A stretch of DNA of 38,262 nt from Candidatus Omnitrophota bacterium (GTDB lineage: Bacteria; Omnitrophota; Gorgyraeia; Gygaellales; Profunditerraquicolaceae). Position 1 is the stretch's first letter. Each line of letters begins with the position of its first letter. Location of the stretch: NCBI GenBank assembly GCA_028715095.1, contig JAQUSM010000001.1, forward strand, positions 1 to 38,262, read 5' to 3'. The notes under the pieces are model-generated. The model did no database searches. It was not told the DNA's origin and saw only the letters and a list, made by a program, of their open reading frames with translations. The translations under genes were made by a program, and so were the position numbers. Positions 1 through 28,172 of the stretch are shown piece by piece.

Positions 1-2
1 TG

Positions 3-1361
<1,359 letters not shown>

Positions 1362-1362
1362 T

Positions 1363-4618: not shown

Positions 4619-4623
4619 AGCCT

Positions 4624-4698: not shown

Positions 4699-4699
4699 C

Positions 4700-4757: not shown

Positions 4758-4818
4758 AACACAAAATATCAGGAATTTGCAAGCGTTTAGGCGAGGGATT
4801 AAAATTGAAGGTGTTATT

Positions 4819-6654
4819 GTGTGCGGAATAGTTGGATATATAGGTGAAAGGCCGGCTCAGGAAATACTCTTGACCGGCCTTAAGCGTTTGGAATACCGAG
4901 GGTATGATTCCAGCGGTATGTCGGTCATTCTGCCCGGGAAAAACACTCCTTGCGTCAGAAAAGCCCCAGGTAAAATCAACGCTTTAGAAAAACTACTTAA
5001 AGTCAGTCCACTTAAAGGATTTGTCGGGATCGCGCATACTCGCTGGGCTACTCACGGAGCTCCTACCCGATTCAATGCCCATCCCCATGCTGATTGTGAA
5101 AACGAAATAACGCTTGTGCATAACGGGATTATCGAAAACTATGAGACCTTAAAGGCACAGTTGCTCAAAGAAGGGCATTTGTTCCGCAGCCAGACCGATA
5201 CCGAAGTTATTGTGCACCTTATCGAGAAGTTTTATAAGAATATACCATTAGAAGAAGCAGTCAGTAAAGCCTTGAAATTAGTCGCCGGGTCTTTTGCTAT
5301 TGCGGTTATCGCCAAGCAAGAGCCGGATAAACTTGTTGGCGCCCGCTCAGGAAGTCCTTTGATCGTGGGGATTGGCAAGGGAGAGAATTTTCTTGCTTCG
5401 GATGCCCCAGCCATCCTTGAACATACCAAAGAGATAATTTTCTTAGAGGAAAATGAGGTAGCGGTATTAAGTAAAAACGGCTGCACAATAAAGGATCTTA
5501 ACGGCAAAACAGTAGCCAGGGGAGCGGTGCGGCTAAATTGGGATATTGAGCAGGCCCAGAAACAAGGGTATAAACATTTTATGCTCAAAGAAATCAATGA
5601 GCAGCCTCGGATTATTGCAAGCCTGCTCGACCTAAGGATCAAGAAGGATAACAGGATTATTTTTAAAGAACAAAACATCGCGCCTGAGAAACTGAAAAAT
5701 ATAAAGAGTATTTTTATCGTTGCATGCGGAACAGCATATCACGCCGGCTTGGTGGGCAAATATGTTTTAGAATCACTTTGTAAAATACCAACATATATAG
5801 ATGTTTCAAGCGAGTTTCGTTACCGGGATTTGCTTATTGATGAAAACACCCTGGTGTTAGCGATCAGCCAATCCGGAGAAACTGCGGATACGCTGGCAGG
5901 TATCAGAGAAGCAAAAAAGATGGGAGCTTCGGTAATTTCTATATGTAATGTGCTGGGTTCGACCTTAACCCGTGAATCAGACGGGGTGATGTATACCCAC
6001 GCCGGACCTGAAATCGGGGTTGCCTCTACTAAGGCCTATACTGCGCAGTTAACTGCAATTTATTTATTTGCCTTTTATCTTGCAGAGGCGCGCAATATAA
6101 TCCCGCAGAATAAAATAAATAAATTCATTGATGAGATAAGGGCCATACCCAAGAAACAGGAGGAGATTCTAAAAAAACAGGATTCCATCGCTCGTGTCTC
6201 TCATCGGCATTCGCATTTTGGTTCTTTCCTGTATTTAGGCAGGAATGTAAATTATCCGTCTGCTTTAGAGGGGGCATTGAAATTAAAAGAAATTTCGTAT
6301 ATCCCGGCAGAGGGTTATGCTGCCGGAGAGATGAAGCATGGCCCCATTGCTTTAATTGATGAATATCGCGGCGTAGTCTGCATTGCTCCGGAGTCCAAGG
6401 TATATGAAAAGATGGTCTCTAATATCCAGGAGATCCGTTCGCGGAAGGGTAAAATTATTGCTATTGCCACCGAGGGGGATACTAATATTAAAGAGTTGAC
6501 CGGAGAGGTTATTTATATCCCTAAGTGTGATGAATTATTTTCTCCTCTTTTGGTGGTATTGCCGCTGCAGTTACTAGCCTACCATATAGCGGTAAAGCGC
6601 GGATGCGATGTGGACCAACCGCGCAACCTGGCTAAATCAGTAACCGTGGAATAA
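4819..6654 (+). CDS. glmS: Glutamine--fructose-6-phosphate aminotransferase (isomerising)
   Basis: I chose the GTG at 4819 because it yields the obligatory N-terminal (M)CGIVGYIG with catalytic Cys2, and GAAGGTG sits 6 nt upstream. Two SIS domains and the canonical C-terminus NLAKSVTVE are present. The tracked ORF extends 14 codons upstream of this start. Confidence 0.93.
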   Translation: MCGIVGYIGERPAQEILLTGLKRLEYRGYDSSGMSVILPGKNTPCVRKAPGKINALEKLLKVSPLKGFVGIAHTRWATHGAPTRFNAHPHADCENEITLVHNGIIENYETLKAQLLKEGHLFRSQTDTEVIVHLIEKFYKNIPLEEAVSKALKLVAGSFAIAVIAKQEPDKLVGARSGSPLIVGIGKGENFLASDAPAILEHTKEIIFLEENEVAVLSKNGCTIKDLNGKTVARGAVRLNWDIEQAQKQGYKHFMLKEINEQPRIIASLLDLRIKKDNRIIFKEQNIAPEKLKNIKSIFIVACGTAYHAGLVGKYVLESLCKIPTYIDVSSEFRYRDLLIDENTLVLAISQSGETADTLAGIREAKKMGASVISICNVLGSTLTRESDGVMYTHAGPEIGVASTKAYTAQLTAIYLFAFYLAEARNIIPQNKINKFIDEIRAIPKKQEEILKKQDSIARVSHRHSHFGSFLYLGRNVNYPSALEGALKLKEISYIPAEGYAAGEMKHGPIALIDEYRGVVCIAPESKVYEKMVSNIQEIRSRKGKIIAIATEGDTNIKELTGEVIYIPKCDELFSPLLVVLPLQLLAYHIAVKRGCDVDQPRNLAKSVTVE

Positions 6655-7307
6655 TGTTTTATATTGTCGCTACCCCGGTAGGCAATTTAAAAGACATAAC
6701 TTTGCGGGCAATTGAAGTTTTAAAAGATGTGGATTTAATTGCCTGTGAAGATACCCGTCACACCAAGATTTTGCTCCAGCATTACGCTATCAAAACTCCC
6801 ACTACCAGTTTTTACCAGCACAACAGAATCAGTAAGGGCGAATATATTATAGGCCTGTTAAAAGAAGGTAAAAATATCGCCTTGGTTTCTGATGCCGGCT
6901 CACCAGGCATACTTGACCCGGGATATAATCTGATTAATCTGGCGATAAGGAATAATCTGGAGATGACTTTTATCCCGGGAGCTGCGGCTTTTATAAATGC
7001 GCTGGTGCTTTCCGGGAAGCCGGCCCATGAATTTTTCTTTGCCGGGTTTCTTGTAAATCGCCAGCAGGCGCGTAAAAATCAACTGGAAAAATTAAAACAA
7101 CTCAACTGTACGGTTATCTTTTATGAGTCCTGCCATAGAATTTTAGCCTGCCTGGAAGATATTCAGGCAATTTTTGGAGACAAGCAAGTGGTTGTAGCCA
7201 GGGAACTTACTAAAAAGTTTGAAGAAATCAAGCGCGCTAGCGCAAAAGATATCCTGGAGTCTTTCAAGAAACAAAAACCCCGGGGCGAATTCGTAGTAAT
7301 TATATAA
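6654..7307 (+). CDS. rsmI: 16S rRNA (cytidine1402-2'-O)-methyltransferase RsmI, short form (217 aa)
   Basis: Motifs are MFYIVATPVGNLKDITLRA, IACEDTRHTKILL, SDAGSPGILDPG, FYESCHR and RELTKKFEE. The protein ends just after GEFVVII, so it lacks the C-terminal extension of longer homologues. Its start overlaps the glmS stop (TAATG). Confidence 0.85.
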   Translation: MFYIVATPVGNLKDITLRAIEVLKDVDLIACEDTRHTKILLQHYAIKTPTTSFYQHNRISKGEYIIGLLKEGKNIALVSDAGSPGILDPGYNLINLAIRNNLEMTFIPGAAAFINALVLSGKPAHEFFFAGFLVNRQQARKNQLEKLKQLNCTVIFYESCHRILACLEDIQAIFGDKQVVVARELTKKFEEIKRASAKDILESFKKQKPRGEFVVII

Positions 7308-7479
7308 CCGCAAGAAAACGCTTTCCTGAAAACCCCCAAATGCCCTTGTAAGCACTTACCTATAATATATACTTTTTCTAACAAGGCTGATAAATGTCCT
7401 CTATATATTGACCTCAGAGGGCATCCTGCGAAGCCCTGATATTTCCTTCAGAAGGCTTAAGCGGGACCTTAAGAATAAG

Positions 7480-7566
7480 ATGAAAATAAAAACAATAAGA
7501 AGTTTTAAAATCATTGCTATTATTTTATCCTTTTTGCTTATTTTTGAGCAATCCGGGTTTGCCCAA
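7480..7566 (+). other. N-terminal Sec-type signal peptide of the giant protein
   Basis: The n-region is basic (MKIKTIRSFK), the h-region is 13 aa (IIAIILSFLLIF), and the c-region is EQSGFAQ with small residues at -3/-1 before IAGE. Confidence 0.7.
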
Positions 7567-10500
7567 ATTGCCGGAGAGCTGGATATTTCAAGTCACTTCT
7601 TAGCCCTGCGGAACAATTTTATTCAAGAGAGATTCCGCCCGTTGCACTTAAGATACCTCTCCTATGATCCAGGGGTCAATAACTTTAATCTGCTTTTAGA
7701 CAAGGGAGATTTTGTGAAGGGCGTCTCTGCAAAGGGGGCTGTCCTCCAGGAGAACTTACAACAAGAAACTAAGATCCTGCTCGATTATTTTTTTGTGGGG
7801 ATATCCTTGCCTAATGAAGCCTTCTGGGTAAACCTCCGGCCGGATGCAGAAGATAACATTATAGATAGAGAACTGGCCGAAACTGACGTAGGAAGAATTC
7901 TGTTAGAGGCAGATTTACAACTTAAAAAAGACACAGCTAATTTTACCTCCCCCCAGACTCCCGAAGGGAAAGAGTATTGGAATAAGCTCTACAGTAAGGC
8001 AGAAGAGCTCTATGGTAATGAAAACATAACTATACCTACGCTAACCCGGCCCTGGATTGTACCGGATGAAATTATCATCAGGGAGAGTTCAGATAATGCC
8101 TATATCTATAAAGCAACGCTCAAAGTCATGCTCGAGCAGGATTACCTTAAGGATTCATCTACTTATAGTTTTCAGGACCAACGTTCCAAGGCCCTGAATG
8201 AATACTCATCCCGGCTCATCAGAGAAACAATTATCCCCAAGTTAACCAAAGAAGTTAATTCCTCCAAAAGATACGCTCCCTTAAGGCAGGTTTACTATTC
8301 TCTTATCCTCGCGCAATGGTTTAAGCAGGAATTTTATGGTAAATCAGGATTATATTCCTACCTCATAGACAGGCATAGACTGGATGGCTTAACTTCTAAA
8401 ACCTCCTGGTCTAAAACAACTTATTTTAACTCCTACAAAACTTCCTTCCAGCAAGGAGAATACAATATTAAAGAGCCGCGCTCCACTCCTTACGGCCAGA
8501 CTATCAGGAGCTATATGAGCGGGGGGTTGGATTTAGGGCAAATAGTATCTTCTGCGATTATACAAGGAGCTGTGCAGGGCAATAAAGATTATGGATCCGG
8601 GTTGTTAATTTCTAAACATGGATTAGGCTTCCATTTTTCAGGTGGCACTGCGAGTAATCCTTTTGGGCTGGAAGTAGATGTAGTTTTGCCTATCGATACA
8701 GACATACCAAGAGCGATTGGACAGCTACCTGTTGTTGGCTCTCCGCTTTCCGGTAATAGCCCTTTCTTACAAAAGCAGGTTTTTTCTAGATCATTGATTT
8801 CCAAAAATAATGAAACTAATTTTTTATCCCGCGCCTTGAAAAATTTAAGCGCGCTGGCAAGGGCAGTGTTTGCATCTAGAAGTGGATCTAAGAGAGGTGC
8901 GTTAGAGCGTATGCTTAACAGTCAGGGTATTAATTTTAAAATCGATGTTTCAATCGGGGACATCGCGGATGATTTTATGGAACTGTCTGCTTTTACTGTC
9001 TCTTTAATTCCTCAAAAAGTACTAAAGGAGTGTGTGAGTGGCTTGGAATTTGGCGCAGATCCCGCTGGAGCATATACAGATGCCGATGAACCGGGTTCGT
9101 ATTCTAACGAAGATAAAATAGCCTATGTATATCAACGATCATTCGCTTTCTGGGATGCTTACTTACTGGCGAGGATAATTTTACATGAGGTAGGCCATGG
9201 ATTCGAGGGCGGTTTTTCCGAAGAAGACGCGGGTAAGATAAAAGCGGCGTATTCACTTATCAGACAAAAAATTCTAAATGGCTATAAAGATTATTCCTTG
9301 TACCTTAAGCAGGATGATAATATTTTGAGCCTCGATAACAGGAAGGCGATTGTAATATATACCGATAAACCGGATGCGTCGCAATTTATAGCCGAGTTTT
9401 TTAGAGAGTTTATTTTAAACGGTGAAGAATTAAGGGCAATGATACAAAGCCAGAAAGACGGCGAAGTCAAAGAAGCGCTGGGTACCATCTATGGTATTTA
9501 TAAGAAGCGTTTTAATAAGGAATATTACACAAGAGACGTAAAGGGGTTGCGGGGCATGCTGGAAAGAATTCCAGCAACGGTAGCAAAACATATCGCGAGA
9601 GATTATAAGCAATTTAGCGAATTTAGGGGAGTTGCGGGAATCTTTTATTTACGCTACGGCCTGACTTTAGATGAATATACCGCATTGGCCGAAAAAGAGG
9701 GGCAAAATGTTTCCGTTGAAGTTCTTTATAAAATAATCCTTAGCAGCCTCGCAAGTAAAACACAGGTTGAGTTTGAGCATTGGAAACTAAAACTAGCATC
9801 AACCCAGCAGGCGTTATATGACAAGCTTATTTCAGTCCTTCACGATTACGCGCAGGCGATTACAAGTATGCATAGCGGCAATATAGATGATATGGAATTG
9901 CATGGCATATTACAAGATCTTAGACAGGTGTTATTAGAAATTAAAACCCAATCTAGCCCAAAGAGTAATGAATATATTCTCGCTACTGAATACGCGCCTA
10001 TCGTGTTTAACGTATCGCTTTCCGCATTAAGCCAAGAATCGCACTTGCCTTCTCTCGATGATATTTTATCAAAACAGCATCAATCTGCCATCTCAGCGGC
10101 TGAAGTTTCCAGCTCGGGGTTGGCCGTAAAGGATGAACTAATATCAAGCGTTAAGGATAATAGTTGGAAACCGGTTGTTCCCGAAGGCCCGTCACAATAC
10201 GGAATTTTATCCTCACTTTTTTACAGGCTGGACAAAAACTCAGTCCCTGAAGAGTTTCCGATTGTTTCTGTAGTTGATGATGGTTTGCAATTGCCGGATT
10301 CGGATGAATTATGTCTAAGTGATAAGGTAACCGCCAGCCGCTTGAAGGATGAAGGCATAGAATTTCTTTCCGGAGAATTGCTGGGCAGTAAGAATTTCCT
10401 CAATGCCCTTAAAGCAGAATGCGCTCAAAAAGGGTCTGATTTGAAGAAGTTTTTAAAGCAGCATCTTATATACGCTATGTCTCCGTCTTTGTTACGGAAA

Positions 10501-22500: not shown

Positions 22501-25500
22501 GCGAGGTTGCAGGAAGTGTTTAAATGGGATGATTACTTCGGGAATTTTACCTCTGAGATGTGGATTGAGCTTTTACGTTGCAAGGGAGTTAAAGAATTAA
22601 AGGGCTTAGATATAAAGGATGGAATACTAATAAAACAGGGTGATACCGTAAATGACGAGCAGGCAATGTTCCTTATTGAAAAAGGAGGGGTGAGGGTTAG
22701 CGAAGATGCACATGGAATTTGGATCGCGGATTTAGAGGAAGGAAATTATGTCGGAGAAATAGGCGCGGGATCTTCAAATAGGCTGCGTACAGCCACAGTG
22801 CGGATAAAAGAGGGAGCATCGGAAACGAAATTTTTGGCAATACCTATGAGTGTATTTAGTGCCCTGGGGCTATCCCGGGTATTTTCGGAAATAAGCAGGC
22901 AACGCAGCAACCGTCTGAAAAGCAGGGAAAGATTAGCCGAGAAGGATTACACTCGTATATTGAAAAAATATCCGGATACAGAGTTTGATGAAGATAGCCC
23001 TGTAACAAAAGCTTATAACCTGGCATTAAAAATTATCAATCCAAAAGAAAACCCGTTGTCCGTGGACGTTACTTACCATAATCCTTACCATTGGAATGAG
23101 TTGCTTGATTTTATCGATGTTGTCCTCCAGGGTATGGGGGATAATCTAAAGAATAAGAATAGGAAAATTATATTTATGTTGGCAAGGGTTGCGGCATATT
23201 TGCACGACATAGGGTATTATTTATCTAATGACCAAGGGAAGTTCACCGTTGTTGGACACGAAGACAGAAGCAAGGAATTTGTGCGTAACAATATGAAAGA
23301 GTTAGGGCTTAGCAGCCGCTATGTCAATGCAATCCAGTTTATGATAGAACATACTAAACTTAAAATAGGGGAGGAATTTGAAAATAAATTGGGTTTAATA
23401 AACCGGGCGTTAGCGGAAATGCACAATGGTAAATTATCTGATAAAACAGAGGTTTTTCTTAAAGAAATTTTGCCTGATTTAGACTTGAATCTGGCTAGTG
23501 ATCTTGATTTTGCTAACGATGTTTTAATCGCTGCTAAGGCTCTTGCCGTAGCAGACCTGTATGCGGCAACTGTTGATATGGTTCCGTTTTTGTGGCTTGA
23601 ATTTACGTTGGAAGGTTCTCCGGCAGGCAAGACGACTATGTTAGAACAAATAGCGGCCTCCCGCGATTTTCATAAAGGCGTTGTTGAACCGCAACGGTTA
23701 AAATTGCTTTTAGGGGGAGGTTTCGGGTTAGAAAAGTTAATAATGGATAGTGGCTTGTTAGAGCGGTTAAAGAGCGCCAGAGAGAAAAATATCGGCATAA
23801 TGCAGCAGTATGCCGAAGCGGTAAAGCAGATAAAGGCAATTGATACTGCCGAATCAGTTAAAAAAACAGCTGAAACGAATTTAGTAAATCTTATTAACGG
23901 CCTTGATGATGATATGGTTGGTCCGCTTAAAGATGAGTTGTTGGCTGAAGTAAAAACACTTGTTTTAAAAAGCAGCGCTGTTGGCGCGGGTTCGGCTTTA
24001 CAAAATCCGGAAACAGGATTAATCGGCAGTAAAACACTTGGAAATTATAAATTTGTTCTGCAAGGCCAGGGCAAAGAAGGATACTTGTTAAAGATTTTTG
24101 GCAAAAGGGGTGTCGCAGGAGAAATAAAATTTAGATTATATAATCTTCCCGATGACAGAAAAGGAGTCTTTGTGGAAAATGTATTTGCTAGTGATGCTTA
24201 TCGCAAAGATTTTAGGAAAGATTTTGAAAAAGGGATATATTCAAATATGCTAAAAGAGATTATAGAGATAGGGGAACAGTATTCCCGTGGCATAAATAAA
24301 GTAACCGAAATAACCGGAGCGATAAATAATCTGGAGACTCTTCAGGGTCTTTATGGCGCTATTGCCGGCAGTCGCCCAACAGAAGAACGGGAAGAGGTTG
24401 AAAGGCTAAGTGGTGTAGAGAAAAAGAATTATTATGAACATACAGAACCGCTGATTAAGATGTTAAAGAAAGCCATAATTGAAGAGATGGGTAGCGAAGA
24501 AGGCAGGATGGAGCTTGATAGGAAACTTCCGGATACCCTTTTAGTAAAAGCCAGGTCAGGCGGGGGTTTCTCGGGAAATCACCATATGCGGGTAGAGGGA
24601 GATCAGATAATCCTTATATCTAATACGCCGGTTAATTCCGCAGGCTCCTCACTCGAGATGCGTCCAGAAGAAGCCGCTAAATTAATAAGGGAGGCAGCGC
24701 AGGAAAACTATGAAAAATGGGGCCTTTTATCCGAGCGTTTAAAAACAGCAAGGCGTATTTTGGTCCGGGTTCCCGGACGCGATAACCGTGGCGGCCACGA
24801 ATTTCCATTAGGGGAGATAGCTGCTACTCTGCCCATATTAATCAAAGCGCTGATTATTTCTGGAGAAAGCATCGAAAAAATAATAGTGCAATGTGATTCT
24901 TATCCGGAATTGGTAGAAGCGTTAGGAGAAAATAGGGTCAAATTAGCTGAGCCTAGTAAGACAACCGACGAATTAAGGTCTATTTATTCCCCGGATTTGG
25001 TTATTGATTTTGACACGGTAGCATTAGGTGAAGAAATTCCGGAAAACACAGTAAAGTTCCCAGTGGCAAAATTATGGATGTCTTTAGATCGTCACAGGGA
25101 AATGCGTGAAATTTTAACTTCAGCAGGATTAAGCATTCCTAAAGAAGGCCAAGCAATTATCAGGAGAGAAAGGGAAAAGGATGGGCAGACGGCCATATTT
25201 GTAAATCCGCATAGTGACAGCAATAAGAATGATAATGTAGATTTGTGGGTAGGGTTAATACGGGAACTTGTTTCAAGGGGGTATAAAGTAGTACTTAATT
25301 CGGGTAAAGAGGCAGGAAAAGACCAGGCACATACAAAAAATATATTAGAAAAGCTTAGAGAAGAAGTGAGATTGGGGGATGTGAAAGAATTTAAAGGGAG
25401 TATTACGGATCTTTTAAATACCTTCTCAAAGAAAATAGACGGAGTAGTAACTATCGATAGCGGTATATTCCACGTAGTGCACAATTTGTATTCCTTACCT

Positions 25501-27915
25501 GCAGTCGTTTTTACTACGTCGAACACATTAGGATGGATTCCGCAGGAAAAGGAGGGGTTATTATTTAAGAGGGTTCAATACTCAGATTTGAAAAATTCTT
25601 CTACTGCGGTAGAGTTATTGCGGAGTTTATTAGATAGAGAAGAAAAAGTAAGCGTCAGTTCTCCGGCTGTACAGGAAGACCTTGCTGGTCCTCAAGATTC
25701 GACTTCGAAGCTTAGCGTAGGATTATTGTCGAAAATCGAGGATCATATGAGAGCGGAATTAAAAAAGATAGATGATGAGATTGATAAGGAAATAGAGGTT
25801 ATGCCTTTTGATGATAAACCGCACCGATTGTCCAACAAAATAATGGAACGCTACCGCCTCTTGTTTAACGAACTTTGCGGAATTGGCCGTGGCAAACCGG
25901 AATTTGATCACTTATCATATTTAATGCAGGACGGAAAATTTACTCCAACAATGGCTATGAACGCATTGCAGAGGTTATTCTTAAAAGAAAACAGGCTTTT
26001 AGTATTTTCTATTGGAAGAGATCCTGTTGATGGAAGAATTATAGAAAATATGCCCGCGCTTTCAGTGTTTAAGGTAAAAGAAACGCAACTAGTTACAGAA
26101 GATATTATAGATAAACATGTAGACGCATTGGCAATATTTGTTGATGGTTTGATTGTGCAAGATTACGCCACAAGACGCCGTATGGGATTTGAATCTTATC
26201 TAGCATTTGCCATACATGGGGTGACCATTGATGGAGCAGTCCCAGTTGTAATAAATAAAGGGAGTATTGCTGCTGAGCTTAAGCGTTACTACGGAATACG
26301 TTTAGAAATGGAAGCTACGGGTCAGCTTCCGGATTTCTATAGAAAGAATATTCCGCTTCTCAATGAGGCGTTGGCAAAACTTTTGATAAAACAGTGGCCT
26401 CAACCAAACAAAGATATCTCCGATTTTATTGCGAAGCATTTGGACGAATACATACGTAGAATTATATTGCATGAGTTAACGCATGTGCATATAGCAGGCA
26501 CGGATGATGATGAAATATTCGCATATCTTGTCGAGATCGCACAGACGCCTTATAGCTGGTTAAGGCTATTTGATGTCGTTTATAGTATTAGTCCCCCAGT
26601 TAGAAGCACGTCGATCGAGCATGATTATGCCTCAAATAATTTTCTGCGCAACTTTATTCAGGGTATTTTCCAAAAGTATGAACCTGGTTCGTTAAAAGAC
26701 ATTCCTGAGGATCGGCATCGTGCTGCGGCAACCAAATTACCTGATACTTATCCTGCAGGACTATTCATGGCGATCTCTGATATTCCTGAAGAAGTGCTTA
26801 AAGCAGAGGCGAAAACAAAATTCTTAGAGTTAAAAGAAAAAGCCCCGACTTCCATTACTCCTGACGGTTCTTCTCTGCCGGGAGCAGCCGGCAGCTCGCC
26901 GATACAATTAGATAATACTTACGATGGACTTATTAACCGTTTTAAAGGCATAGGAAAAGAGCTAAAAGTAGTAAATTTAAAGTTTTCTGAGGAAGTATCC
27001 CATAAGCTTAAAACAAGGATGGTCGGGTGGAGGAACGGATTGAAAGCAAGGAAGAAAGAGCTTGATTTGTTTTTTACTAATAATCAAGCGTTGAGCGAGG
27101 AGGATAGCCGTAAATTAAATAAATTTATAAGCGGGATTGCTGAGTATGTAGAAAAAAGACGCAACCTCATCAGGCCGCAGGAGCCTTTAGCCGTTGCCGA
27201 AAAGATATTGTTTACTACAGTTGGATATGGGTATCCTTATGCGGAAATCGATATAACAAGTGTTCCTGGAGCAGTGAGAGTTTATAGTACAATTCTAGCC
27301 AAGAGCAATAATGAGAAGTTTAGAGAATTAATGGATGAAGCAATGGTGAGAATGCAGAGGATACTTGAGGTTTTAAACAGGGTGATAGAAGAAGGAAGTA
27401 TAGATTTAGCACTTGCCGGAAGAAGTGGGCAGCAGGTTGTGGTAGTAAAAGAAGAAACGATACGAAGGATCTACAATGAAGTAAGCGGAGTTTCCAGCTC
27501 TCCAGTAGAAGATGAAAAAGGCGGTATTGATATGCGGTCGCTTACCAGGTATACCAAGGTGGAGCAGATACGCAGCCGCGTTTCGGGTGAACAGCCTCAG
27601 CTAGCAGGGGCAGCTCCGGCTTCTGATAAAGAATGGCAGGAGATAGAAATGATGGCAAGTTCAGGCATAGCTCCTTCTTGTGAGCGATTAAGAGAATACC
27701 TTTTGTCTTTGCAGGATCCAAGTAACCAGATAGACAAAGTCCTTACTTGTATCGCGGATATCTTGAGGCAGGAGGAGGAAAAGGCCTGTTGTACGGAATC
27801 ATCTTTGAGAGAAATACTGATTCTGCTTGAATCAGGCAGGCCGGTAAATGAATTAAGGCTGGCATTGGCAAAGATACAGGTTTTGTCTAAAGAGCCGCAA
27901 TTGATAGAGCAATAA
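7480..27915 (+). CDS. Giant multidomain secreted or membrane-associated protein of 6,811 aa (6,835 codons if the TTG at 7408 is counted); overall function unknown
   Basis: A single stop-free frame runs for 20.5 kb in AT-rich DNA, while every other ORF in the other five frames across this interval is under 160 codons. The ATG at 7480 opens a classical signal peptide, MKIKTIRSFKIIAIILSFLLIFEQSGFAQ. Sub-features below list the recognisable motifs scattered along it. A hairpin plus T-tract follows the stop. Confidence 0.9.
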   Translation: MKIKTIRSFKIIAIILSFLLIFEQSGFAQIAGELDISSHFLALRNNFIQERFRPLHLRYLSYDPGVNNFNLLLDKGDFVKGVSAKGAVLQENLQQETKILLDYFFVGISLPNEAFWVNLRPDAEDNIIDRELAETDVGRILLEADLQLKKDTANFTSPQTPEGKEYWNKLYSKAEELYGNENITIPTLTRPWIVPDEIIIRESSDNAYIYKATLKVMLEQDYLKDSSTYSFQDQRSKALNEYSSRLIRETIIPKLTKEVNSSKRYAPLRQVYYSLILAQWFKQEFYGKSGLYSYLIDRHRLDGLTSKTSWSKTTYFNSYKTSFQQGEYNIKEPRSTPYGQTIRSYMSGGLDLGQIVSSAIIQGAVQGNKDYGSGLLISKHGLGFHFSGGTASNPFGLEVDVVLPIDTDIPRAIGQLPVVGSPLSGNSPFLQKQVFSRSLISKNNETNFLSRALKNLSALARAVFASRSGSKRGALERMLNSQGINFKIDVSIGDIADDFMELSAFTVSLIPQKVLKECVSGLEFGADPAGAYTDADEPGSYSNEDKIAYVYQRSFAFWDAYLLARIILHEVGHGFEGGFSEEDAGKIKAAYSLIRQKILNGYKDYSLYLKQDDNILSLDNRKAIVIYTDKPDASQFIAEFFREFILNGEELRAMIQSQKDGEVKEALGTIYGIYKKRFNKEYYTRDVKGLRGMLERIPATVAKHIARDYKQFSEFRGVAGIFYLRYGLTLDEYTALAEKEGQNVSVEVLYKIILSSLASKTQVEFEHWKLKLASTQQALYDKLISVLHDYAQAITSMHSGNIDDMELHGILQDLRQVLLEIKTQSSPKSNEYILATEYAPIVFNVSLSALSQESHLPSLDDILSKQHQSAISAAEVSSSGLAVKDELISSVKDNSWKPVVPEGPSQYGILSSLFYRLDKNSVPEEFPIVSVVDDGLQLPDSDELCLSDKVTASRLKDEGIEFLSGELLGSKNFLNALKAECAQKGSDLKKFLKQHLIYAMSPSLLRKGESNNSALRYLREMLGDDIVEKYPKTTQAFIPLILSIFQKSSQVSAINFFESGAGGTSCGNTRRSLSGTIPLTKMLVYVYQLNAVMEEAYLKTNKSPGELVEALINLGFGPPLYNSVETISYALELLLAQWEKDGFTENAFMFFTMGLEQALESTSSAPYRQYIRRPAGLKDKNWFAGVTDDFSTIDNNLTKEGWLYFITHEKDFSEFIGILTGNGYRFSRFDIKELLMLSKKEGMKDFIADLGAYGYKFKKEHTSALLEMFGRREEIIKKIKEMKVIRPEYTYYIFEDGSKYHYDPEEVLIHSLVNYEIGFYEDLNKLFGVLNSEFAPFAEDIRVELFKVYSDFSKPGYQSVMRYLSMSKESPAQKIKSVKELVKLAGFINGLAEPGTSSKNEIGAIVKALLSVDTSYREAGINFLMSDENSVLATVKIELLRYLLTLGFPQGVLLAIINRAEKINRTMRLEFYRGINNILRTKSMLEIDSVADWNTMLNDYISRFGFLTERNLILLHRYLFNEMPLEDARIQQFLPEGIDAAVYLLSENDSWFISTALRLALASVHALEKMRIPAKGIRDWLSKTRLFTERKGVLTSTGVKGIEEIENIFKGAWLRLLEEETLDTKTLSLPILDALLGGKLGFYTSQWGHGSSRGMKLRDFTFAFNNLKRRGMIPELSPVFAQSGKFTVRKRGRIEFTSDEQNKFSEFSLLIKEAAGLSAEPIDKQVQQFKLKAVEIVEAKLQELNSKVDTSEGKAKEAMVRQIDKLDNVLISINSAKYDNLIGLAEELVSVKELSNIVELVLLTYSLGGQRESILLKNIMEAVNGDISEIALRRIIELKTHTIKDHTLAAVEKNTKAYLLKTINIAIFQKALARVEAISGDNIEVKAFATKGILGELAGDIGDACYTGQSNIMARISPSQITAVIFSAGNGLNTELIGSMLILENTINGKPAFILRAVNPSESFLSRYDAEDFLKGAIKYIEERVGGKTEFVVAPTGNTGALSNRNEINTAFKKFTDNEKLDLDKEETFNGYNITKGIVSKVSSSPLSGAKDISFADDDTLIGESDELPNSLSVASSTVDQSKENNIDLSRRKGIIISLATVLSLKILGPSKALAQLLNSDEMFYLHLAGSDPKKTVLDFKKYEGQTFAKNVLKAAINKNADVVLEHAEVFINETYAQELFELATQTWPQSVLRHAYQIIKQPYAQKIIEAAASKYPMGALEYSFNYAKQSYAEEIIAAAAKSEPVAALKFAKAYIEEPYAKGILEGAAKKNYLATLEYSKNYFNKQYMRPIIEQCVRRSAWGALRFASGYLDMPGARALIEGAAELRPDTAMRYSFEYMAAPYAKDIIIKSALQEPAAAIIETRGVGWVLEEKRKDVPEIDIILRIAASEYRGKQERIGALLDMIMDDIGSGIDADRAMYKASKISENDNEFFKELMRIKSKKSPRGAASVDRFLKRLSLILIRDMNDMHDLTAERRFRALNDYDAGMLYTMIVYGEDEVYTSTFNGIFNILVKKMKENNISGEKLLEMVGKNKFRVFIKLTAAFKRLNEFWDILEVKSKKDELIKEFVQGLAGIRIDNERLSQTIAVADTFSVINGGYQQVILREAIDEYKKMETAGNKEGVRVYGILIGIFGSQLSIEEPWFQKMYQDYPVPDLTAIDGSQLFDPNGAQVNTQVHFFYNDPDGKNSFDNFKKLFKKNEIKESPDKSFIVITKQRADKKIIIYANNPYTDAVKGQMQVDKALKERGIEPQVVVHRGHSFHLGDTIERITAKAKIVFLGACGGYNYIVDVLERAPLAHIVSTKGTGKNDVNNPLLDMLNNELLSGKGIQWEGFWQKAKKRLGESKDFSDYVPPHRNLGVLFLKTYYNVTENVSKTIPHTGNQGFLREIIDSLTPEVILPITVFNMAINKITGRDPMDRREFLGLGRKTEQLGSADSSLSREEIQMKWENFINTAYFYHGTSSLFKNSIIENGLDASLKPFDRKEILDFFNIYYKKFSGMNDSPKNEGNIDKIFLTTNQKTAEIYAENPPEVINILLRACGEMEEAYEQKTEAGKKLNSDDLEFIKNMFDKYNHYKENHRPLVMKIKIKAAIEAALRYRLSVLGDEELKKYGLADSERNLGGILAAKTKGKLAPEQLLNIDGLFSALDFDVFMAYSQNVKGMFKQNWDDFLSQTFPRLISGPTDEIAIQQVASKEIEAVAGSSLQNPLPAAPASALQGGQENKNGMNRRTFLGILGLGGLAVLLGLSDSGNAGEPLREDAQPEEGVQKQVDWDKARGFIADKLAEKYPEKKQAQDIKNVFGGYEKDKSKAYREISKLLNSMAKEMDKEQRIGSNSNGWFTMYFIYIDGLYENFGQKIIFPFGKKFAFLDSSNNQGTRKIMEDMLEEEASTAKKWLGRIGGIFAAAGTGALIYNNIIKPWFARRFARALKEELGAINSITFNDDGFTLRTRSSRIEIDFSAKSIKIFSTSGGKEKMAHKRQDSRRYYDYYGFSIESAAWDYIIAGQDKEMLLNYIPIKLRDNEYYGYMSTRLKMESLLKGIVATIRDFNEYSFQDLLRIVELLEKEERVSQQALVRWLIEAKKRGQALRSALDKLQDLLKLLDGQPQEAVDAGMNLLITKPYLDTPHLRVWLEDAVSRGQDKAKLVSDLNDYYSITRALLRLGDYENETAQTIHLILRDNPEIKRHNLLSWLRDAKQGGKDGKEFLSGLKRLVLINKRFIEDREAHWPRSGYADDYKRLEDVLLSQSGKLLLTLGGIYDAGYLNSLLQLYIGGYLSASLWGKEYQHFKEIENILEENINLIDAANLLELKKKEISGNNKLEALILAKASVDPSFVGSIAENIKKETSPQVNKNLINLLFSFEGAEETIRDILMGINPEDAAQKHIRNEYSWQWQLLEEWPDNEKSIARIMKKYPELLSKVLAIAKPLVPSYKGNPPYYKRHFPLIISAALSNIRELSVSADEFRDLLEMLNNWQCRPDCLKAISYAVLNNPALYQELLAEENIFDAEYLLGVKMLPVWLRMKLQRQFLEHFKYAFSQLRPDQSSTILAAMIRNMVLNGRVEARDLDLLTTLSERSEAVNTVFFCRELRKIGYEIDKSDYFTYGDFRFIHKLAQQPGITAFLRKLRSYGFILRDDFGAKIGMLRSIFENRAEYFPKIEAIRSVLPDFKYRPLLEDLSPASVLISFLEKYPSRAVSMMSNLEGVLAAVNPEAVPYAEKIREVCATLNYPAFLVNSFLNGSLNELLQKFTGTDDFLRFMLTENIPEADFKKEFILFLAGYTRATQSQFDILIETFRSTLNNPQQSAQIADIIGSWFSSADTTFSLPRDVSTAMKNISSGNMDNSDLMHVLANYLAISKALQQEGMQRSIAYKDVLELIKKRSNGATVFEDIPEEHTRNIEGLVYEAIIIWNKLLEIERAGKKQIVVANLSYGGVAVTPITEERNNQAYIVATQIPVWYTKVGSTPAHNNEYVLVPGLFTPNQIKFLIEEKPYVSVVDGSTSVAASDRSSPHIPDAFKGYRNYFIVLNHALGETFDPKDFDVDEEFVNGLLATAEAQELIKKIQILAIKPRAPNGYKFGFSYERKADSEKSEFLYLRESKKEAAEAKKLNINEALKQNNPFCIFHQSGVHPNDVDSELMPEKYQPCFFDDKDHFKQFYLDYEDGYGVVLSKRYAYAARELFRRFMLQKGVDVMSGRFTTDSIRPIDTLVLDLDGTLTEAVGGNIENGTANIINYLLKKGVRIIIITDDVKANVEKRIAKLDKSPNLVVFTDGGARADGGVFEQYNAKNIISPDLREKILNMARANFPFGAWKEGENDSPYRIQITDIQERTNFIERFQDLLDKEGIEAKVYKVGKNSARVTLAHKEVAFTEAIKTFNLDVSKSLIIADSARSYRIDRKLLTDFPESVSVNIGKFSPSIEKDNQRIVQYAGQGTAATKMLLSSVAFRGGLPQRLLISFVQSQPLEYAEAASSLTNAVESAGSALEEVNPQKISAALGKMEKQAVGEREIYGLAARLQEVFKWDDYFGNFTSEMWIELLRCKGVKELKGLDIKDGILIKQGDTVNDEQAMFLIEKGGVRVSEDAHGIWIADLEEGNYVGEIGAGSSNRLRTATVRIKEGASETKFLAIPMSVFSALGLSRVFSEISRQRSNRLKSRERLAEKDYTRILKKYPDTEFDEDSPVTKAYNLALKIINPKENPLSVDVTYHNPYHWNELLDFIDVVLQGMGDNLKNKNRKIIFMLARVAAYLHDIGYYLSNDQGKFTVVGHEDRSKEFVRNNMKELGLSSRYVNAIQFMIEHTKLKIGEEFENKLGLINRALAEMHNGKLSDKTEVFLKEILPDLDLNLASDLDFANDVLIAAKALAVADLYAATVDMVPFLWLEFTLEGSPAGKTTMLEQIAASRDFHKGVVEPQRLKLLLGGGFGLEKLIMDSGLLERLKSAREKNIGIMQQYAEAVKQIKAIDTAESVKKTAETNLVNLINGLDDDMVGPLKDELLAEVKTLVLKSSAVGAGSALQNPETGLIGSKTLGNYKFVLQGQGKEGYLLKIFGKRGVAGEIKFRLYNLPDDRKGVFVENVFASDAYRKDFRKDFEKGIYSNMLKEIIEIGEQYSRGINKVTEITGAINNLETLQGLYGAIAGSRPTEEREEVERLSGVEKKNYYEHTEPLIKMLKKAIIEEMGSEEGRMELDRKLPDTLLVKARSGGGFSGNHHMRVEGDQIILISNTPVNSAGSSLEMRPEEAAKLIREAAQENYEKWGLLSERLKTARRILVRVPGRDNRGGHEFPLGEIAATLPILIKALIISGESIEKIIVQCDSYPELVEALGENRVKLAEPSKTTDELRSIYSPDLVIDFDTVALGEEIPENTVKFPVAKLWMSLDRHREMREILTSAGLSIPKEGQAIIRREREKDGQTAIFVNPHSDSNKNDNVDLWVGLIRELVSRGYKVVLNSGKEAGKDQAHTKNILEKLREEVRLGDVKEFKGSITDLLNTFSKKIDGVVTIDSGIFHVVHNLYSLPAVVFTTSNTLGWIPQEKEGLLFKRVQYSDLKNSSTAVELLRSLLDREEKVSVSSPAVQEDLAGPQDSTSKLSVGLLSKIEDHMRAELKKIDDEIDKEIEVMPFDDKPHRLSNKIMERYRLLFNELCGIGRGKPEFDHLSYLMQDGKFTPTMAMNALQRLFLKENRLLVFSIGRDPVDGRIIENMPALSVFKVKETQLVTEDIIDKHVDALAIFVDGLIVQDYATRRRMGFESYLAFAIHGVTIDGAVPVVINKGSIAAELKRYYGIRLEMEATGQLPDFYRKNIPLLNEALAKLLIKQWPQPNKDISDFIAKHLDEYIRRIILHELTHVHIAGTDDDEIFAYLVEIAQTPYSWLRLFDVVYSISPPVRSTSIEHDYASNNFLRNFIQGIFQKYEPGSLKDIPEDRHRAAATKLPDTYPAGLFMAISDIPEEVLKAEAKTKFLELKEKAPTSITPDGSSLPGAAGSSPIQLDNTYDGLINRFKGIGKELKVVNLKFSEEVSHKLKTRMVGWRNGLKARKKELDLFFTNNQALSEEDSRKLNKFISGIAEYVEKRRNLIRPQEPLAVAEKILFTTVGYGYPYAEIDITSVPGAVRVYSTILAKSNNEKFRELMDEAMVRMQRILEVLNRVIEEGSIDLALAGRSGQQVVVVKEETIRRIYNEVSGVSSSPVEDEKGGIDMRSLTRYTKVEQIRSRVSGEQPQLAGAAPASDKEWQEIEMMASSGIAPSCERLREYLLSLQDPSNQIDKVLTCIADILRQEEEKACCTESSLREILILLESGRPVNELRLALAKIQVLSKEPQLIEQ
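9172..9210 (+). other. HExxH zinc-metallopeptidase-like motif 1 (ARIILHEVGHGFEGG)
   Basis: HEVGH is encoded at 9184-9198 and is preceded by a hydrophobic helix (FWDAYLLARIIL). I could not identify a third metal ligand by eye. Confidence 0.4.
13741..13830 (+). other. Internal signal-peptide-like or transmembrane segment 1 (DLSRRKGIIISLATVLSLKILGPSKALAQ)
   Basis: A basic RRK is followed by a ~16-aa hydrophobic stretch and then an A-x-A-type ALA-Q box. This is the same architecture as the N-terminal signal peptide. Confidence 0.55.
13912..14590 (+). repeat. Eight tandem copies of a ~28-aa (84-nt) helical repeat, consensus roughly PYAxxIIExAAxxxPxxALxYxxxYxxx
   Basis: Units read in register include TYAQELFELATQTWPQSVLRHAYQIIKQ, PYAQKIIEAAASKYPMGALEYSFNYAKQ, SYAEEIIAAAAKSEPVAALKFAKAYIEE, PYAKGILEGAAKKNYLATLEYSKNYFNKQ, PGARALIEGAAELRPDTAMRYSFEYMAA and PYAKDIIIKSALQEPAAAIIE. 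The DNA copies have diverged. Confidence 0.75.
15500..15960 (+). other. Possible Cys/His (clan CD-like) alpha/beta peptidase-type module
   Basis: Hydrophobic strands alternate (VHFFY, FIVITK, IIIYAN). PQVVVHRGHSFH follows, with His codons at 15745, 15754 and 15763. About 25 aa later comes KIVFLGACGGYN with Cys at 15823-15825. His-after-strand and Cys-after-strand is the caspase/gingipain/CHAT pattern. This rests on motifs only. Confidence 0.3.
16342..17070 (+). other. Possible ADP-ribosyltransferase-fold (H-Y-E / Tpt1-like) module
   Basis: AYFYHGTSSLFKNSIIENGL (YHGT at 16351-16362) resembles the diphtheria toxin / exotoxin A YHGT...SI..G motif. KIFLTTNQKTAEIYA resembles the toxin F/Y-S-T-x-x-K...Y segment. 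A candidate catalytic Glu lies in PTDEIAIQQV (Glu codon 17032-17034). Confidence 0.35.
17155..17235 (+). other. Internal twin-arginine (Tat)-like signal or transmembrane segment (MNRRTFLGILGLGGLAVLLGLSDSGNA)
   Basis: An in-frame ATG at 17155 is followed by RRTFLG (Tat consensus S/T-RRxFLK), a 16-aa hydrophobic stretch and then a small-residue region. AGGAAAA lies 10-17 nt upstream. A second hydrophobic helix, IGGIFAAAGTGALIYNNII, follows at about 17665-17720. Confidence 0.6.
21580..22260 (+). other. HAD-superfamily phosphatase-like module
   Basis: Motif I is LVLDLDGTLTE, with Asp codons at 21595 and 21601. Motif II is a hydrophobic strand plus Thr in VRIIIITDD. A motif IV-like LIIADSARSYRID lies near 22118-22155. 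Confidence 0.6.
22481..22880 (+). other. Cyclic-nucleotide-binding (CAP/CRP-type) like module
   Basis: GILIKQGDTVNDEQAMFLIEKGGVRV ... EEGNYVGEIGAGSSNRLRTATVRI ... TKFLAIPMSVF matches the G-x-x-x-GE ... R-[TS]-A-T-V phosphate-binding-cassette pattern. Confidence 0.55.
23070..23360 (+). other. HD-domain phosphohydrolase-like module
   Basis: YHNPYHWNELLDF ... ARVAAYLHDIGYY (His-Asp codons at 23203-23208) ... VVGHEDRSKEFV follows the H...HD...H/D spacing typical of HD domains. Confidence 0.5.
24751..25560 (+). other. Glycosyltransferase family 9 (heptosyltransferase)-like module
   Basis: The N-terminal half starts RILVRVPGRDNRGG...LPILIKAL. The C-terminal half, AIFVNPHSDSNKND..LWVGLIRELVSRGYKVVLNSGKEAGKD...EFKGSITDLLNTFSKKIDGVVTIDSGIFHVVHNLYSLPAVVFT, aligns position for position with the WaaC/WaaF pattern (F..(S/T)...K.W....W..L...L...G..vvL.G......L.G.tsL.el..li..a...v..DSG..Hla.al..P.v.lfG). 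Confidence 0.55.
26458..26500 (+). other. HExxH zinc-metallopeptidase-like motif 2 (RRIILHELTHVHIAG)
   Basis: HELTH is encoded at 26470-26484. It shares the RIILHE context with motif 1 at 9172-9198. Confidence 0.4.
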
Positions 27916-27987
27916 AAGGGGCGCTTACCTTCCCAAAAGGTTTATCAGCCAGAAAGAAGGTTCCCTAATAAGCGTCCCTTTTTATTT
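27916..27987 (+). terminator. Rho-independent terminator of the giant gene (compound hairpin plus T-tract)
   Basis: AAGGGGCGCTTA (27916-27927) pairs with TAAGCGTCCCTT (27969-27980) for 12 bp including one G-U. An inner CCTTC/GAAGG helix is also possible. TTTTTATTT follows. It starts 1 nt after the TAA stop. Confidence 0.6.
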
Positions 27988-28009
27988 ACGATAGCACGGA
28001 GAAATAGCC

Positions 28010-28038
28010 TTGACAAAGTGCCTTTGAAGTGCTATATT
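28010..28038 (+). promoter_or_regulatory. Near-consensus sigma70 promoter of the pyr operon
   Basis: TTGACA (28010-28015), an exact 17-nt spacer, then TATATT (28033-38). It lies 135 nt upstream of the pyrR ATG and just downstream of the preceding terminator. Confidence 0.7.
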
Positions 28039-28094
28039 TATATAAATAAATTAACCTTTAAGCTGGCTCTTGAGAAGTCGGCAAGGCAGATAAA

Positions 28095-28169
28095 ATGCTG
28101 AATAAAGTTATGGAAAATAAGAACCCTTGGCAGAGAAACCAAGGGTATTTTTTTGCCCGCAAAGGATAA
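28095..28169 (+). CDS. Candidate 24-codon leader peptide (MLNKVMENKNPWQRNQGYFFARKG) in the pyrR leader
   Basis: The ATG at 28095 has AAGG 8 nt upstream. The ORF reads straight through the attenuator hairpin. It stops at 28167-28169, 3 nt before the pyrR ATG, and overlaps the pyrR Shine-Dalgarno AAAGGA. Confidence 0.4.
   Translation: MLNKVMENKNPWQRNQGYFFARKG
28123..28154 (+). terminator. Attenuator hairpin plus U-tract in the pyrR leader, with a PyrR-box-like CAGAGA loop
   Basis: ACCCTTGG (28123-28130) pairs with CCAAGGGT (28139-28146). The loop is CAGAGAAA. ATTTTTTT follows, with the T run at 28148-28154. It lies 19 nt upstream of the pyrR start. Confidence 0.6.
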
Positions 28170-28172
28170 ACC

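Follow-up and report, generated by a model that had tools for sequence, protein, structure and literature searches.

Giant open reading frames (ORFs) in the phylum Omnitrophota have already been published, and the phenomenon itself is known. In the parts of Seymour et al. 2023 (PMC10066038) drawn on here, Omnitrophota ORFs exceeding 20 kb are described from most classes of the phylum as poorly conserved sequences with few domains. The sections of West-Roberts et al. 2023 (bioRxiv 10.1101/2023.11.21.568195) used here class proteins above 30 kaa (thousand amino acids) as Archaeovorins and Dockerin-type and state that their cleavage points are unknown, and the sections covered of Nielsen & Lui 2026 (bioRxiv 10.64898/2026.06.07.730766) present a catalogue of proteins of at least 10 kaa with HAD, HD, methyltransferase and HATPase modules, in which internal signal-peptide calls were suppressed as chunking artefacts. 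Omnitrophota giant genes are among the largest known, and whether they give rise to one chain or to many products is an open question. Here we describe a giant gene at positions 7480 to 27915 on the forward strand of a 38,262-nt stretch of DNA (contig JAQUSM010000001.1, assembly GCA_028715095.1, the whole of which is called the window below). Similarity searches show that its product, which we call the giant, belongs to a very large family with a constant head and tail around a variable cargo of about 0.25 to 6.5 kaa, mostly specific to Omnitrophota and apparently undescribed. At 6.8 kaa the giant is small enough to be dissected, and its two caps, a recurring junction motif and internal signal peptides are handles that could make the question testable.

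The two caps are the following:

7567..8544, + strand: head domain, amino acids (aa) 30-355, with the motifs FRPxHLRYLSYD, FWVNLRPD, ADLQLKKD, RPWIVP and LRQVYYSL, ending in SGGLDL
27490..27912, + strand: tail, aa 6671-6811, with a VSSSP junction, GGIDMR (GGIDFRxLP in the family), a Pro-rich linker and a helical bundle at aa 6714-6800

Homologues were collected with aa 1-5000 of the giant, a query that does not contain the tail; 176 proteins matched and the best 120 were examined. In all 120 the first ~350-430 aa aligned with the query at 44-89% identity, always at the relative's own N-terminus and with the alignment starting at residues 1-30. The last ~140 aa, the tail, were found at the relative's own C-terminus in 104 of the 120 even though they were absent from the query (194 of 246 in the wider set), and between the caps the coverage by relatives falls to a few proteins per position. 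With the head alone as query, HMMER matched 7,453 clusters, counted as representatives at 50% identity, at E <= 1e-3, of which 5,725 reach E <= 1e-30; the alignment starts near the first residues in each of the 150 matches listed, and many of the shorter proteins are probably truncated by contig ends. The head gene was found at 425 loci of the GTDB species genomes; nearly all of the best 80 are from Omnitrophota metagenome-assembled genomes (MAGs), and at least 10 assemblies supply two or three loci each among these 80. The family statistics given below refer to 247 proteins and 80 loci chosen by similarity to the giant's head (members carry P and L numbers, respectively). Complete head-to-tail ORFs range from ~780 to 7,391 aa, so that the giant is among the longest in a continuous range of sizes. 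Among the paralogues sampled, the head is ~65% and the tail ~40% conserved, and the giant scores 628 and 156 bits, respectively, against the hidden Markov models (HMMs) of the two. A side observation concerns locus L034 (SCRK01000074.1), where two complete head-to-tail family genes, 1-5973 and 5977-11913, lie in tandem with 3 nt between them.

Neither head nor tail has a sequence match in Pfam, NCBIfam or the PDB, whether searched singly or as profiles. The AlphaFold2 model of the head, built from an alignment of 20 sequences, is of mixed alpha/beta type with long helices and three beta-hairpins (predicted local distance difference test (pLDDT) ~85-95 in the core, 72 on average; predicted template modelling score 0.67). 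In the tail model a disordered stretch that carries the near-invariant GGIDFRxLP is followed by the Pro-rich linker and by a helical bundle with pLDDT ~94. Foldseek found nothing at E <= 1e-3 for the head in the PDB and in the viral library BFVD, or for the tail in the PDB. Several candidates were considered and rejected: NheA, the best Foldseek match of a cap, has E = 0.39 and a TM-score of 0.11 and is no evidence of a common fold; a designed PPR protein gave the one low E-value (3.6e-4, over 33 residues) when profiles of the head, the tail and the His/Cys module described below were compared with the PDB, but no stretch passed alone; a phage origin is rejected, as the head has no match in the phage collection; and GGIDFR is not a general internal junction but essentially specific to the tail, occurring once in 105 of the 120 proteins and twice in 11, without internal HMM matches.

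The 20-kb frame is a real gene, and it comes from an uncultivated member of the Omnitrophota. Its outline is given by these features:

7480..27915, + strand: giant gene, 6,811 codons and a stop, corresponding to MDD5408473.1
7480..7566, + strand: Sec-type signal peptide, aa 1-29, ending in the family-conserved FEQxGFAQ, with Q24, G26, A28 and Q29 invariant or nearly so
27914..27988, + strand: terminator-like hairpin and U-run, judged by folding energy and z-score
7346..7373, + strand: weak promoter-like site TTGTAA-16-TATACT in the spacer between rsmI and the giant gene, with 9 of 12 positions matched

In the ORF listing the frame is open on the + strand from 7408 to 27915, which gives 6,835 aa from a TTG, while the ATG at 7480 gives the 6,811-aa product (20,436 nt to the stop at 27915). 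This ATG is the correct start because the product matches the deposited protein and because the orthologue and ~120 relatives align from this residue. The product is identical over its full length to MDD5408473.1 ("HD domain-containing protein", Candidatus Omnitrophota; P0001 in our set), and the nearest loci are all from Omnitrophota MAGs, in agreement with the lineage guessed in the first-pass annotation, which had been made from the letters of this stretch alone and had left the taxon undecided; the window is in fact a complete contig of an Omnitrophota MAG. That annotation had read the frame as a single real gene, with only short ORFs in the other five frames, its own signal peptide and a terminator directly after the stop, and these points are borne out. 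No ORF in the other five frames exceeds 154 aa across the span. In the N-terminus, MKIKTIRSFK-IIAIILSFLLIF-EQSGFAQ, the three parts of a Sec signal peptide (charged, hydrophobic, small-residue) can be recognised, and the stop codon is followed by a hairpin (27914-27982, -27.1 kcal/mol, z = -3.85) and then by CCCUUUUUAUUU; a simple terminator scan had missed the hairpin because of its long loop. The spacing of chance stop codons needs correction, as at 41.9% G+C it is ~15 codons across the span and not the ~20 stated; the chance of finding 6,835 open codons is ~1e-206. The promoter-like site scores no better than expected from shuffled sequences, and the ATG at 17155, considered as a possible internal start of translation, is not preceded by any convincing Shine-Dalgarno sequence, a lack that it shares with the true start at 7480.

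The closest relative, P0002, is a single ORF of 7,391 aa on an independent contig of 113,887 bp from a different sample. The order of genes around it is the same (dnaN, gyrB, a 278-aa ORF, gyrA, glmS, rsmI, the giant gene, pyrR, pyrB, pyrC and onwards), so the question raised at first pass, whether orthologous loci are also single ORFs or are split into several genes, is answered in favour of one gene. The two proteins align in three collinear blocks (aa 1-875, 2075-2942 and 3197-6811 of the giant) with 81-88% identity; between the first two blocks P0002 differs in that the segment is replaced and expanded. The Nei-Gojobori ratio of nonsynonymous to synonymous substitution rates (dN/dS) lies between 0.09 and 0.38 in all 300-codon windows of the aligned blocks, so that the aligned length is under purifying selection throughout, somewhat relaxed in comparison to the flanking housekeeping genes (0.02-0.15). 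The synonymous distance itself is uneven, 0.065-0.18 at aa 4997-6500 (22470-26980) and 1.2-1.6 at aa 3497-4396 (17970-20670). As values from 0.065 to 1.6 occur within one gene, against 0.28-0.69 in the flanking genes, this mosaic is best explained by intragenic recombination.

It is instructive to set the giant against the published proteins, as far as the parts of these studies used here go. With 20,436 nt in an Omnitrophota genome it falls under the definition of Seymour et al., just over the 20-kb threshold, and it shares with their ORFs the phylum, the small number of annotated domains, a variable body and a signal peptide or hydrophobic segments. Shared terminal domains are not reported in the covered parts of that study (PMC10066038), whereas they are seen here, and the capped architecture of the present family reaches down to ~800 aa. 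The Archaeovorins and Dockerin-type giants (10.1101/2023.11.21.568195) resemble it in their multi-enzyme content, in the suspected post-translational cleavage and in the presence of 'cytoplasmic' enzymes that are predicted to be outside the cell; according to the same sections they differ from it in being longer than 30 kaa, with many transmembrane helices, SecA_DEAD and C39/S8 domains, and type II secretion/Tad and pilZ genes as neighbours, none of which is seen in the giant. The SecA DEAD and C39/S8 domains had no Pfam match even at E <= 10 in ten segments of the giant. The Pfam 'Module 1' proteins of Nielsen & Lui combine HAD and HD in a signal-transduction/regulatory module and are likewise multi-enzyme proteins without a dominant repeat, but their catalogue starts at 10 kaa and a head/tail family is not reported in its covered sections. 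The capping by head and tail, the junction motif, the slot between rsmI and pyrR and the internal twin-arginine signals treated below are thus not described in the portions of the Omnitrophota giant-protein literature drawn on here, and may be described elsewhere.

The cargo between the caps is modular. When it was tiled against the 247 proteins and 80 loci, nearly every 400-aa tile was matched in another member at a different position and in a different order, and the resulting homology blocks (aa 474-852, 1421-2047, 2136-2867, 4144-4974, ~5171-5500, 5503-5721, 5721-6059, 6078-6457 and the tail from 6671) are treated here as modules:

8899..10035, + strand: module A, aa 474-852, with the first HExxH motif (ILHEVGH, aa 569) and a homologue in L016; no family match
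11740..13620, + strand: module B, aa 1421-2047, dark, ending at VSSSP (aa 2042); common to P0133, P0122, P0009, P0006 and L038 at other positions
13885..16080, + strand: module C, aa 2136-2867, helical repeats of ~36 aa (aa ~2136-2420) and then an RxHS...G[AS]CG region; homologue P0188
21586..22137, + strand: HAD-IIB phosphatase-like domain, aa 4703-4886 (DLDGTL), within module D; Pfam Hydrolase_3, 25 bits against a cut-off of 20.9
22624..22863, + strand: cyclic-nucleotide-binding-like domain, aa 5049-5128; Pfam cNMP_binding, a borderline 26.7 bits against 27.5, and a weak NCBIfam CRP match
23179..23373, + strand: HD phosphohydrolase domain, aa 5234-5298; Pfam HD (PF01966), 26.7 bits with a cut-off of 22; the NCBI name derives from it
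23986..24642, + strand: module F, aa 5503-5721, dark, between the AGSAL and AGSSL junctions; common to P0003 and L004
24640..25656, + strand: GT9 (heptosyltransferase)-like module, aa 5721-6059; Pfam GT9 17.8 bits (aa 5907-6001), below the cut-off; TIGR02193 E = 6.7e-5
25711..26850, + strand: module H, aa 6078-6457, with the second HExxH motif (ILHELTHVH, aa 6331); homologue P0125
26887..27492, + strand: module I, aa 6470-6671, dark; shared with P0002 alone

Module D (aa 4144-4974) is common to P0003, P0004 and P0005, and the L009 homologue of the GT9-like module reaches 27.3 bits, above the Pfam cut-off. Only four domains are detectable in the cargo (HAD-IIB, cNMP-binding, HD and GT9-like), ~85% of it matches no known family, and the HD domain after which the protein is named by NCBI covers ~1% of its length. 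A phmmer search of both halves of the giant against the PDB gave no match at E <= 0.1. The first-pass annotation had described ~7570-13700 and 17750-21500 as dark but for one HExxH; these regions are still dark to Pfam, NCBIfam and the PDB, while the protein as a whole has two such motifs, which stand in similar contexts (ARIILHEVGH and RRIILHELTH). In module C the repeat unit was read off the translation, P0188 aligns with the repeat stretch in several registers, and no Pfam repeat family was matched. The second part of this module contains an RxHS...G[AS]CG[GS]Y pair of motifs (aa 2755-2785; 15742-15834), ~25 residues apart, that is kept in four proteins down to 22% identity, and we speculate that it may be the catalytic His/Cys dyad of some enzyme or protease; a profile of the His/Cys module found nothing significant in the PDB. 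Two guesses at function were abandoned as they had no support from Pfam or the PDB, namely a clan-CD (caspase-like) peptidase at aa 2640-2870, suggested by RxHS...GACG, and an ADP-ribosyltransferase/Tpt1-like domain at aa 2943-3200, suggested by FYHGTS. The cargo of other members includes glycolytic enzymes, methyltransferases, HATPase, HEAT repeats, M48 with UbiB, radical SAM, AAA and DnaJ domains, a metallophosphatase with FHA, and GT4 with a kinase. Block comparison across the members shows a family that evolves via gain, loss and shuffling of modules.

A Ser-rich motif, [AVG][GS]S[SA][LP] ('ASSP/AGSSL'), recurs in the giant at aa 419, 2042, 3200, 4974, 5503, 5721, 6059, 6470 and 6671, where it reads VGSPL, VSSSP, AGSSL, AGSAL, AGSAL, AGSSL, VSSPA, AGSSP and VSSSP, respectively. 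Two of these junctions, found in the motif scan, are of particular use below:

8734..8748, + strand: first junction, VGSPL, aa 419
17077..17091, + strand: junction AGSSL, aa 3200, which sits at a breakpoint with respect to P0002

All nine motifs lie within 15 aa of the edge of a homology block, a distance that applies to 26% of the protein (binomial P = 5.5e-6), and if the close orthologue P0002 is left out, eight of the nine still do (P = 6e-5). The same tendency is seen family-wide: 'ASSP' is 24-fold enriched in the cargo, the junction motif occurs 193 times as compared to 42 in shuffled sequences, and 9% of block ends are within 10 aa of a junction motif, against 1.7% of random positions (~5-fold). 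The tripeptides most enriched at block ends are SSP, SPV, ASS and SSS.

Two of the modules begin with what look like signal peptides of their own:

13750..13830, + strand: internal Sec-like signal peptide, aa 2091-2117, RRKG-IIISLATVLSLKIL-GPSKALA|Q, conserved in P0002
17155..17247, + strand: internal twin-arginine (Tat)-like signal peptide, aa 3226-3256, MNRRTFLGILGLGGLAVLLGLSDSGNA|GE

They begin 49 and 26 aa past the junctions at aa 2042 and aa 3200, respectively. Both have basic residues on the N-side and small-residue, cleavage-like sites on the C-side, and by this pattern they look like signal peptides that lead from the cytoplasm to the outside and not like stop-transfer anchors. Over its whole length the giant has one N-terminal and two to five weak internal hydrophobic segments, and the head is followed by more than 1,000 aa with no such segment (maximum Kyte-Doolittle value 1.04 in a 19-residue window); the topology is judged here from simple hydropathy. 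The first-pass annotation had proposed a surface-anchored protein that joins an extracytoplasmic N-terminal part to a cytoplasmic enzymatic and signalling tail. The export signal is there and the 3' third does contain the HAD, cNMP-binding, HD and GT9-like domains, but the anchor topology is not established, given the long stretch after the head without a hydrophobic segment and the signal-peptide-like character of the internal ones.

The Tat-like segment deserves a closer look. In the giant, aa 3226-3245 match Pfam TAT_signal (PF10518) with 18.1 bits (E = 0.0025), under the cut-off of 22.7 and at an internal position. The homologous segment of P0133, a 23%-identical paralogue (VSRRNFLKWLG...), scores 24.7 bits, above the cut-off, and a segment of P0124 is likewise above it. 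The pattern RRx[FL][LIVMF] with at least 11 uncharged residues after it was found 22 times at internal positions, in 20 of the 247 family proteins, as opposed to none in the reversed sequences and two when RR is replaced by KK, even though the proteins contain more K than R. A perfect S/T-RRxFLK signal is present in many of the 22, at aa ~390-460, immediately past the head, and 12 of the 22 are within 80 aa after a junction-like motif (7% at random). In the literature search no paper was found that pairs Omnitrophota with twin-arginine or polyprotein. We consider the junction motif and the internal signal peptides to be candidate cleavage boundaries.

The genomic position of the family gene is also conserved. 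The gene for rsmI stands immediately 5' of the head gene in 26 of the 80 loci, with glmS in 25 and gyrA in 21, and pyrR lies 3' wherever the end of the gene falls inside the fetched flank. The proteins encoded in this slot have 1,459, 1,463, 1,606, 1,879, 2,368, at least 2,400, 4,873, 6,811 and 7,391 aa, and beyond head and tail they have at most one module in common with the giant (the GT9-like module in L009, module F in L004). Comparison of the loci shows a slot near dnaN and gyrBA that is kept across species while its cargo turns over, with proteins of 1.4-7.4 kaa; a fixed place beside replication-origin genes with a different payload in each species is a pattern typical of host-interaction genes. 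A second recurrent setting was noted in L006 and 5-8 more loci (6 kb upstream), with a RarA-like ATPase (7 loci), a ~1,026-aa protein (9 loci) and a secreted cyclophilin-type peptidyl-prolyl isomerase (6 loci) directly 5' of the head gene.

Outside Omnitrophota, six Streptomyces megaplasmids encode a head-like domain with 28-36% identity (E = 1e-30 to 1e-43). Three of these proteins were examined (L082:6864-9185, L083:6873-9152 and L084:2828-5209; 759-793 aa), and all three share one layout: a signal peptide and a variable domain come first, the head-like domain follows between GG[IV]DF and GGVD[LF], and the C-terminus is formed by a hydrophobic segment with a basic tail. L084 alone has a sortase motif, LADTG (LAxTG-type), ahead of the hydrophobic segment. 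The variable domains contain HxE...CxxC deaminase-like motifs in two cases (PCxxC in L083, FCxxC in L082) and a PD-(D/E)xK-like motif in L084 (by eye); the proteins have no match in Pfam, NCBIfam or the PDB. With a signal peptide before it and a C-terminal hydrophobic anchor after it, the head-like domain is probably extracytoplasmic in Streptomyces, where it is paired with variable partners as well. The GGIDF strand that opens the tail of the Omnitrophota proteins is the same motif as at the two ends of the head-like domain.

Polymorphic toxins or effectors and two-partner-secretion (TPS) exoproteins combine a conserved N-terminal trafficking domain with a variable payload. The capped family resembles them: it has a conserved N-terminal module for export, a hypervariable payload, several paralogues per genome, a recombination-driven turnover and a dN/dS above that of housekeeping genes. 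The resemblance extends to the Streptomyces proteins, in which the head-like domain is fused to variable domains with deaminase-like or PD-(D/E)xK-like motifs. The giant differs from polymorphic toxins and TPS proteins in that its C-terminus is conserved and its payloads are metabolic and regulatory enzymes, with no recognisable toxins. Pfam and NCBIfam searches found no TPS (Haemagg_act), Rhs, LXG, T9SS C-terminal sorting or other known trafficking domain, and there is no TpsB or immunity gene nearby. Surface polyproteins processed at short motifs form another class, exemplified by the P97/P102 adhesins of Mycoplasma hyopneumoniae and by gingipain/HagA of Porphyromonas. These too are large secreted precursors with short recurring junction motifs and protease-like modules inside, but there is no sequence relationship to the giant, for which processing is a proposal.

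The explanation that best joins these observations, and that we favour with moderate confidence, is that a real Omnitrophota gene encodes a member of a capped modular family whose head is exported and whose chain is probably cut at the junctions. Head and tail would be the common handles by which every paralogue is exported, anchored or assembled at the envelope, and the cargo would be the variable payload. The head would be outside the cytoplasm, since it follows a conserved signal peptide, and since the homologous domain of the Streptomyces proteins is flanked by a signal peptide and a C-terminal hydrophobic anchor (with LADTG in L084). After synthesis the chain would be cut at some or all of the junctions. 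To judge from the order of motifs and signals, cleavage there is the most likely course, because two modules start shortly past junctions with signal peptides of their own, in the wrong orientation for stop-transfer anchors in one chain. Modules that have such signals would be routed separately, and the payload would act at the cell surface, in the periplasm or in the host or prey cell, which is consistent with the host-dependent lifestyle proposed for the phylum. If the caps are targeting or assembly signals, they would allow the 'dark' proteome of a phylum of ultra-small, host-dependent bacteria to be surveyed and compared by simple means.

There are several points that weigh against this explanation. 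The two HExxH modules and the His/Cys module match no protease family in Pfam or in a sequence search of the PDB. The giant's own Tat-like signal stays below the Pfam cut-off, an internal Tat-like signal is present in only ~8% of the sampled members, and ~12-16% of the members have a strong transmembrane helix right after the head, which suggests that their cargo is cytoplasmic. Much of the family's cargo is normally cytoplasmic (the DnaJ (J) domain, kinases, FHA, radical SAM, glycolytic enzymes and nucleotide-sugar glycosyltransferases) and is hard to reconcile with a chain exported entirely by Sec; the modules could be delivered into a host cell or leave in folded form via Tat, or the chain may not be cleaved at all. 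The overall confidence of the head model is medium (pLDDT 72), and the junction motif could be a plain flexible linker that is moved along with the shuffled modules.

The cleavage model can be taken further, although we do so only tentatively and would sooner doubt the extended version than assert it. The capped proteins may be payload carriers of polyprotein type throughout Omnitrophota, cut at the Ser-rich junctions, with modules routed separately (some via internal Sec or Tat signals) and with the caps as universal handles for export or head-to-tail assembly; the larger giants would then be the same arrangement scaled up. The idea of head-to-tail assembly comes from the GGIDFR strand of the tail, which repeats the strand that opens the head-like domain. 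If true, such carriers would provide the cleavage points that have been lacking and account for the presence of cytoplasm-type enzymes outside the cell.

The main competing explanation, which we consider unlikely on balance, is that the product is one uncleaved chain anchored in the inner membrane, with the head outside, one or a few internal segments spanning the membrane, and the HAD/cNMP/HD/GT9 part acting as a tethered scaffold in the cytoplasm. The domains of the C-terminal third do need cytoplasmic ligands (cNMP, nucleotide sugars, phosphorylated substrates), the strong helix just past the head found in some members is 3-fold more frequent there than in other windows, and the HAD/HD/methyltransferase content of longer Omnitrophota proteins is taken as cytoplasm-facing in the covered sections of Nielsen & Lui 2026. 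The giant itself speaks against it, as no hydrophobic segment follows its head for more than 1,000 aa, and its candidate anchors at aa 2091 and 3226, with RR/K on the N-side and acidic or small residues on the C-side, both have the in-to-out orientation, and two such segments in a row cannot alternate. A more general difficulty is posed by the members in which the signal peptide and head are followed, ~50 aa on, by a perfect Tat signal. The Sec signal requires that the head is exported and the Tat signal is read on the cytoplasmic face, so that both cannot be satisfied in one uncleaved chain.

Still less probable, in our view, is an Archaeovorin-type 'coat' protein for predation or adhesion, a surface giant that binds and degrades host walls together with Tad/type II secretion machinery. 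It would agree with the phylum, the signal peptide and the helical repeats, and the family cargo (HEAT repeats, glycosyltransferases, glycolytic enzymes, methyltransferases, HATPase) overlaps the Archaeovorin list as given in the sections used here. However, Pfam searches found no SecA_DEAD, C39/S8 peptidase, dockerin, discoidin, lytic transglycosylase or glycoside hydrolase, the giant has at most a few hydrophobic segments, its neighbours are housekeeping genes with no secretion, pilus or pilZ genes among them, and the proteins by which the class is defined in those sections are 4-12 times as long. An artefact (an assembly chimera, genes joined by collapsed frameshifts, or a decaying pseudogene) might be suspected in a MAG contig when two genomes differ by large module-sized indels, but it is highly improbable in view of the negligible chance of so long an open frame, the independent assembly from another sample with one ORF, the same caps and the same synteny, purifying selection in all windows, more than 100 sampled relatives that are single head-to-tail ORFs, and indel breakpoints at junction motifs.

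The giant gene is surrounded by housekeeping genes. On its 5' side are gyrB, a 278-aa ORF, gyrA, tRNA-Glu, glmS and rsmI, and on its 3' side pyrR, pyrB, pyrC, a TIGR00375 protein, tRNA-Arg, a TIGR00725 protein, the C-terminal half of carB, fpg, a methyltransferase, pyrK and pyrD. The placement between rsmI and the pyr operon, with no secretion, transposase or integrase genes beside it, is as the first-pass annotation had it, and no transporter, pilus or pilZ gene was found in the window either.

A few minor features of the window are recorded here for completeness. The 278-aa ORF between gyrB and gyrA (1363-2199) has no NCBIfam or Pfam match and has a conserved counterpart at the corresponding position of the orthologous contig (89% identity, dN/dS 0.14). 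The leader of the pyr operon (28010-28172) contains a promoter close to the consensus (TTGACA-17-TATATT, upstream TG) as well as a terminator-like hairpin (28123-28146) with a U-run 26 nt 5' of the pyrR start, an arrangement that resembles PyrR-type attenuation; Rfam at the gathering threshold reported two tRNAs only in the window and no PyrR element. The tRNAs are tRNA-Glu(TTC) at 4624-4699, between gyrA and glmS, and tRNA-Arg(CCG) at 32198-32269, between the TIGR00375 gene and the LOG-like gene. Finally, the gene for carbamoyl-phosphate synthase large subunit, carB, is apparently split, as a separate gene of 522 aa at 32841-34409, after the TIGR00725/LOG-like gene, corresponds to its C-terminal half (model positions 551-1058).

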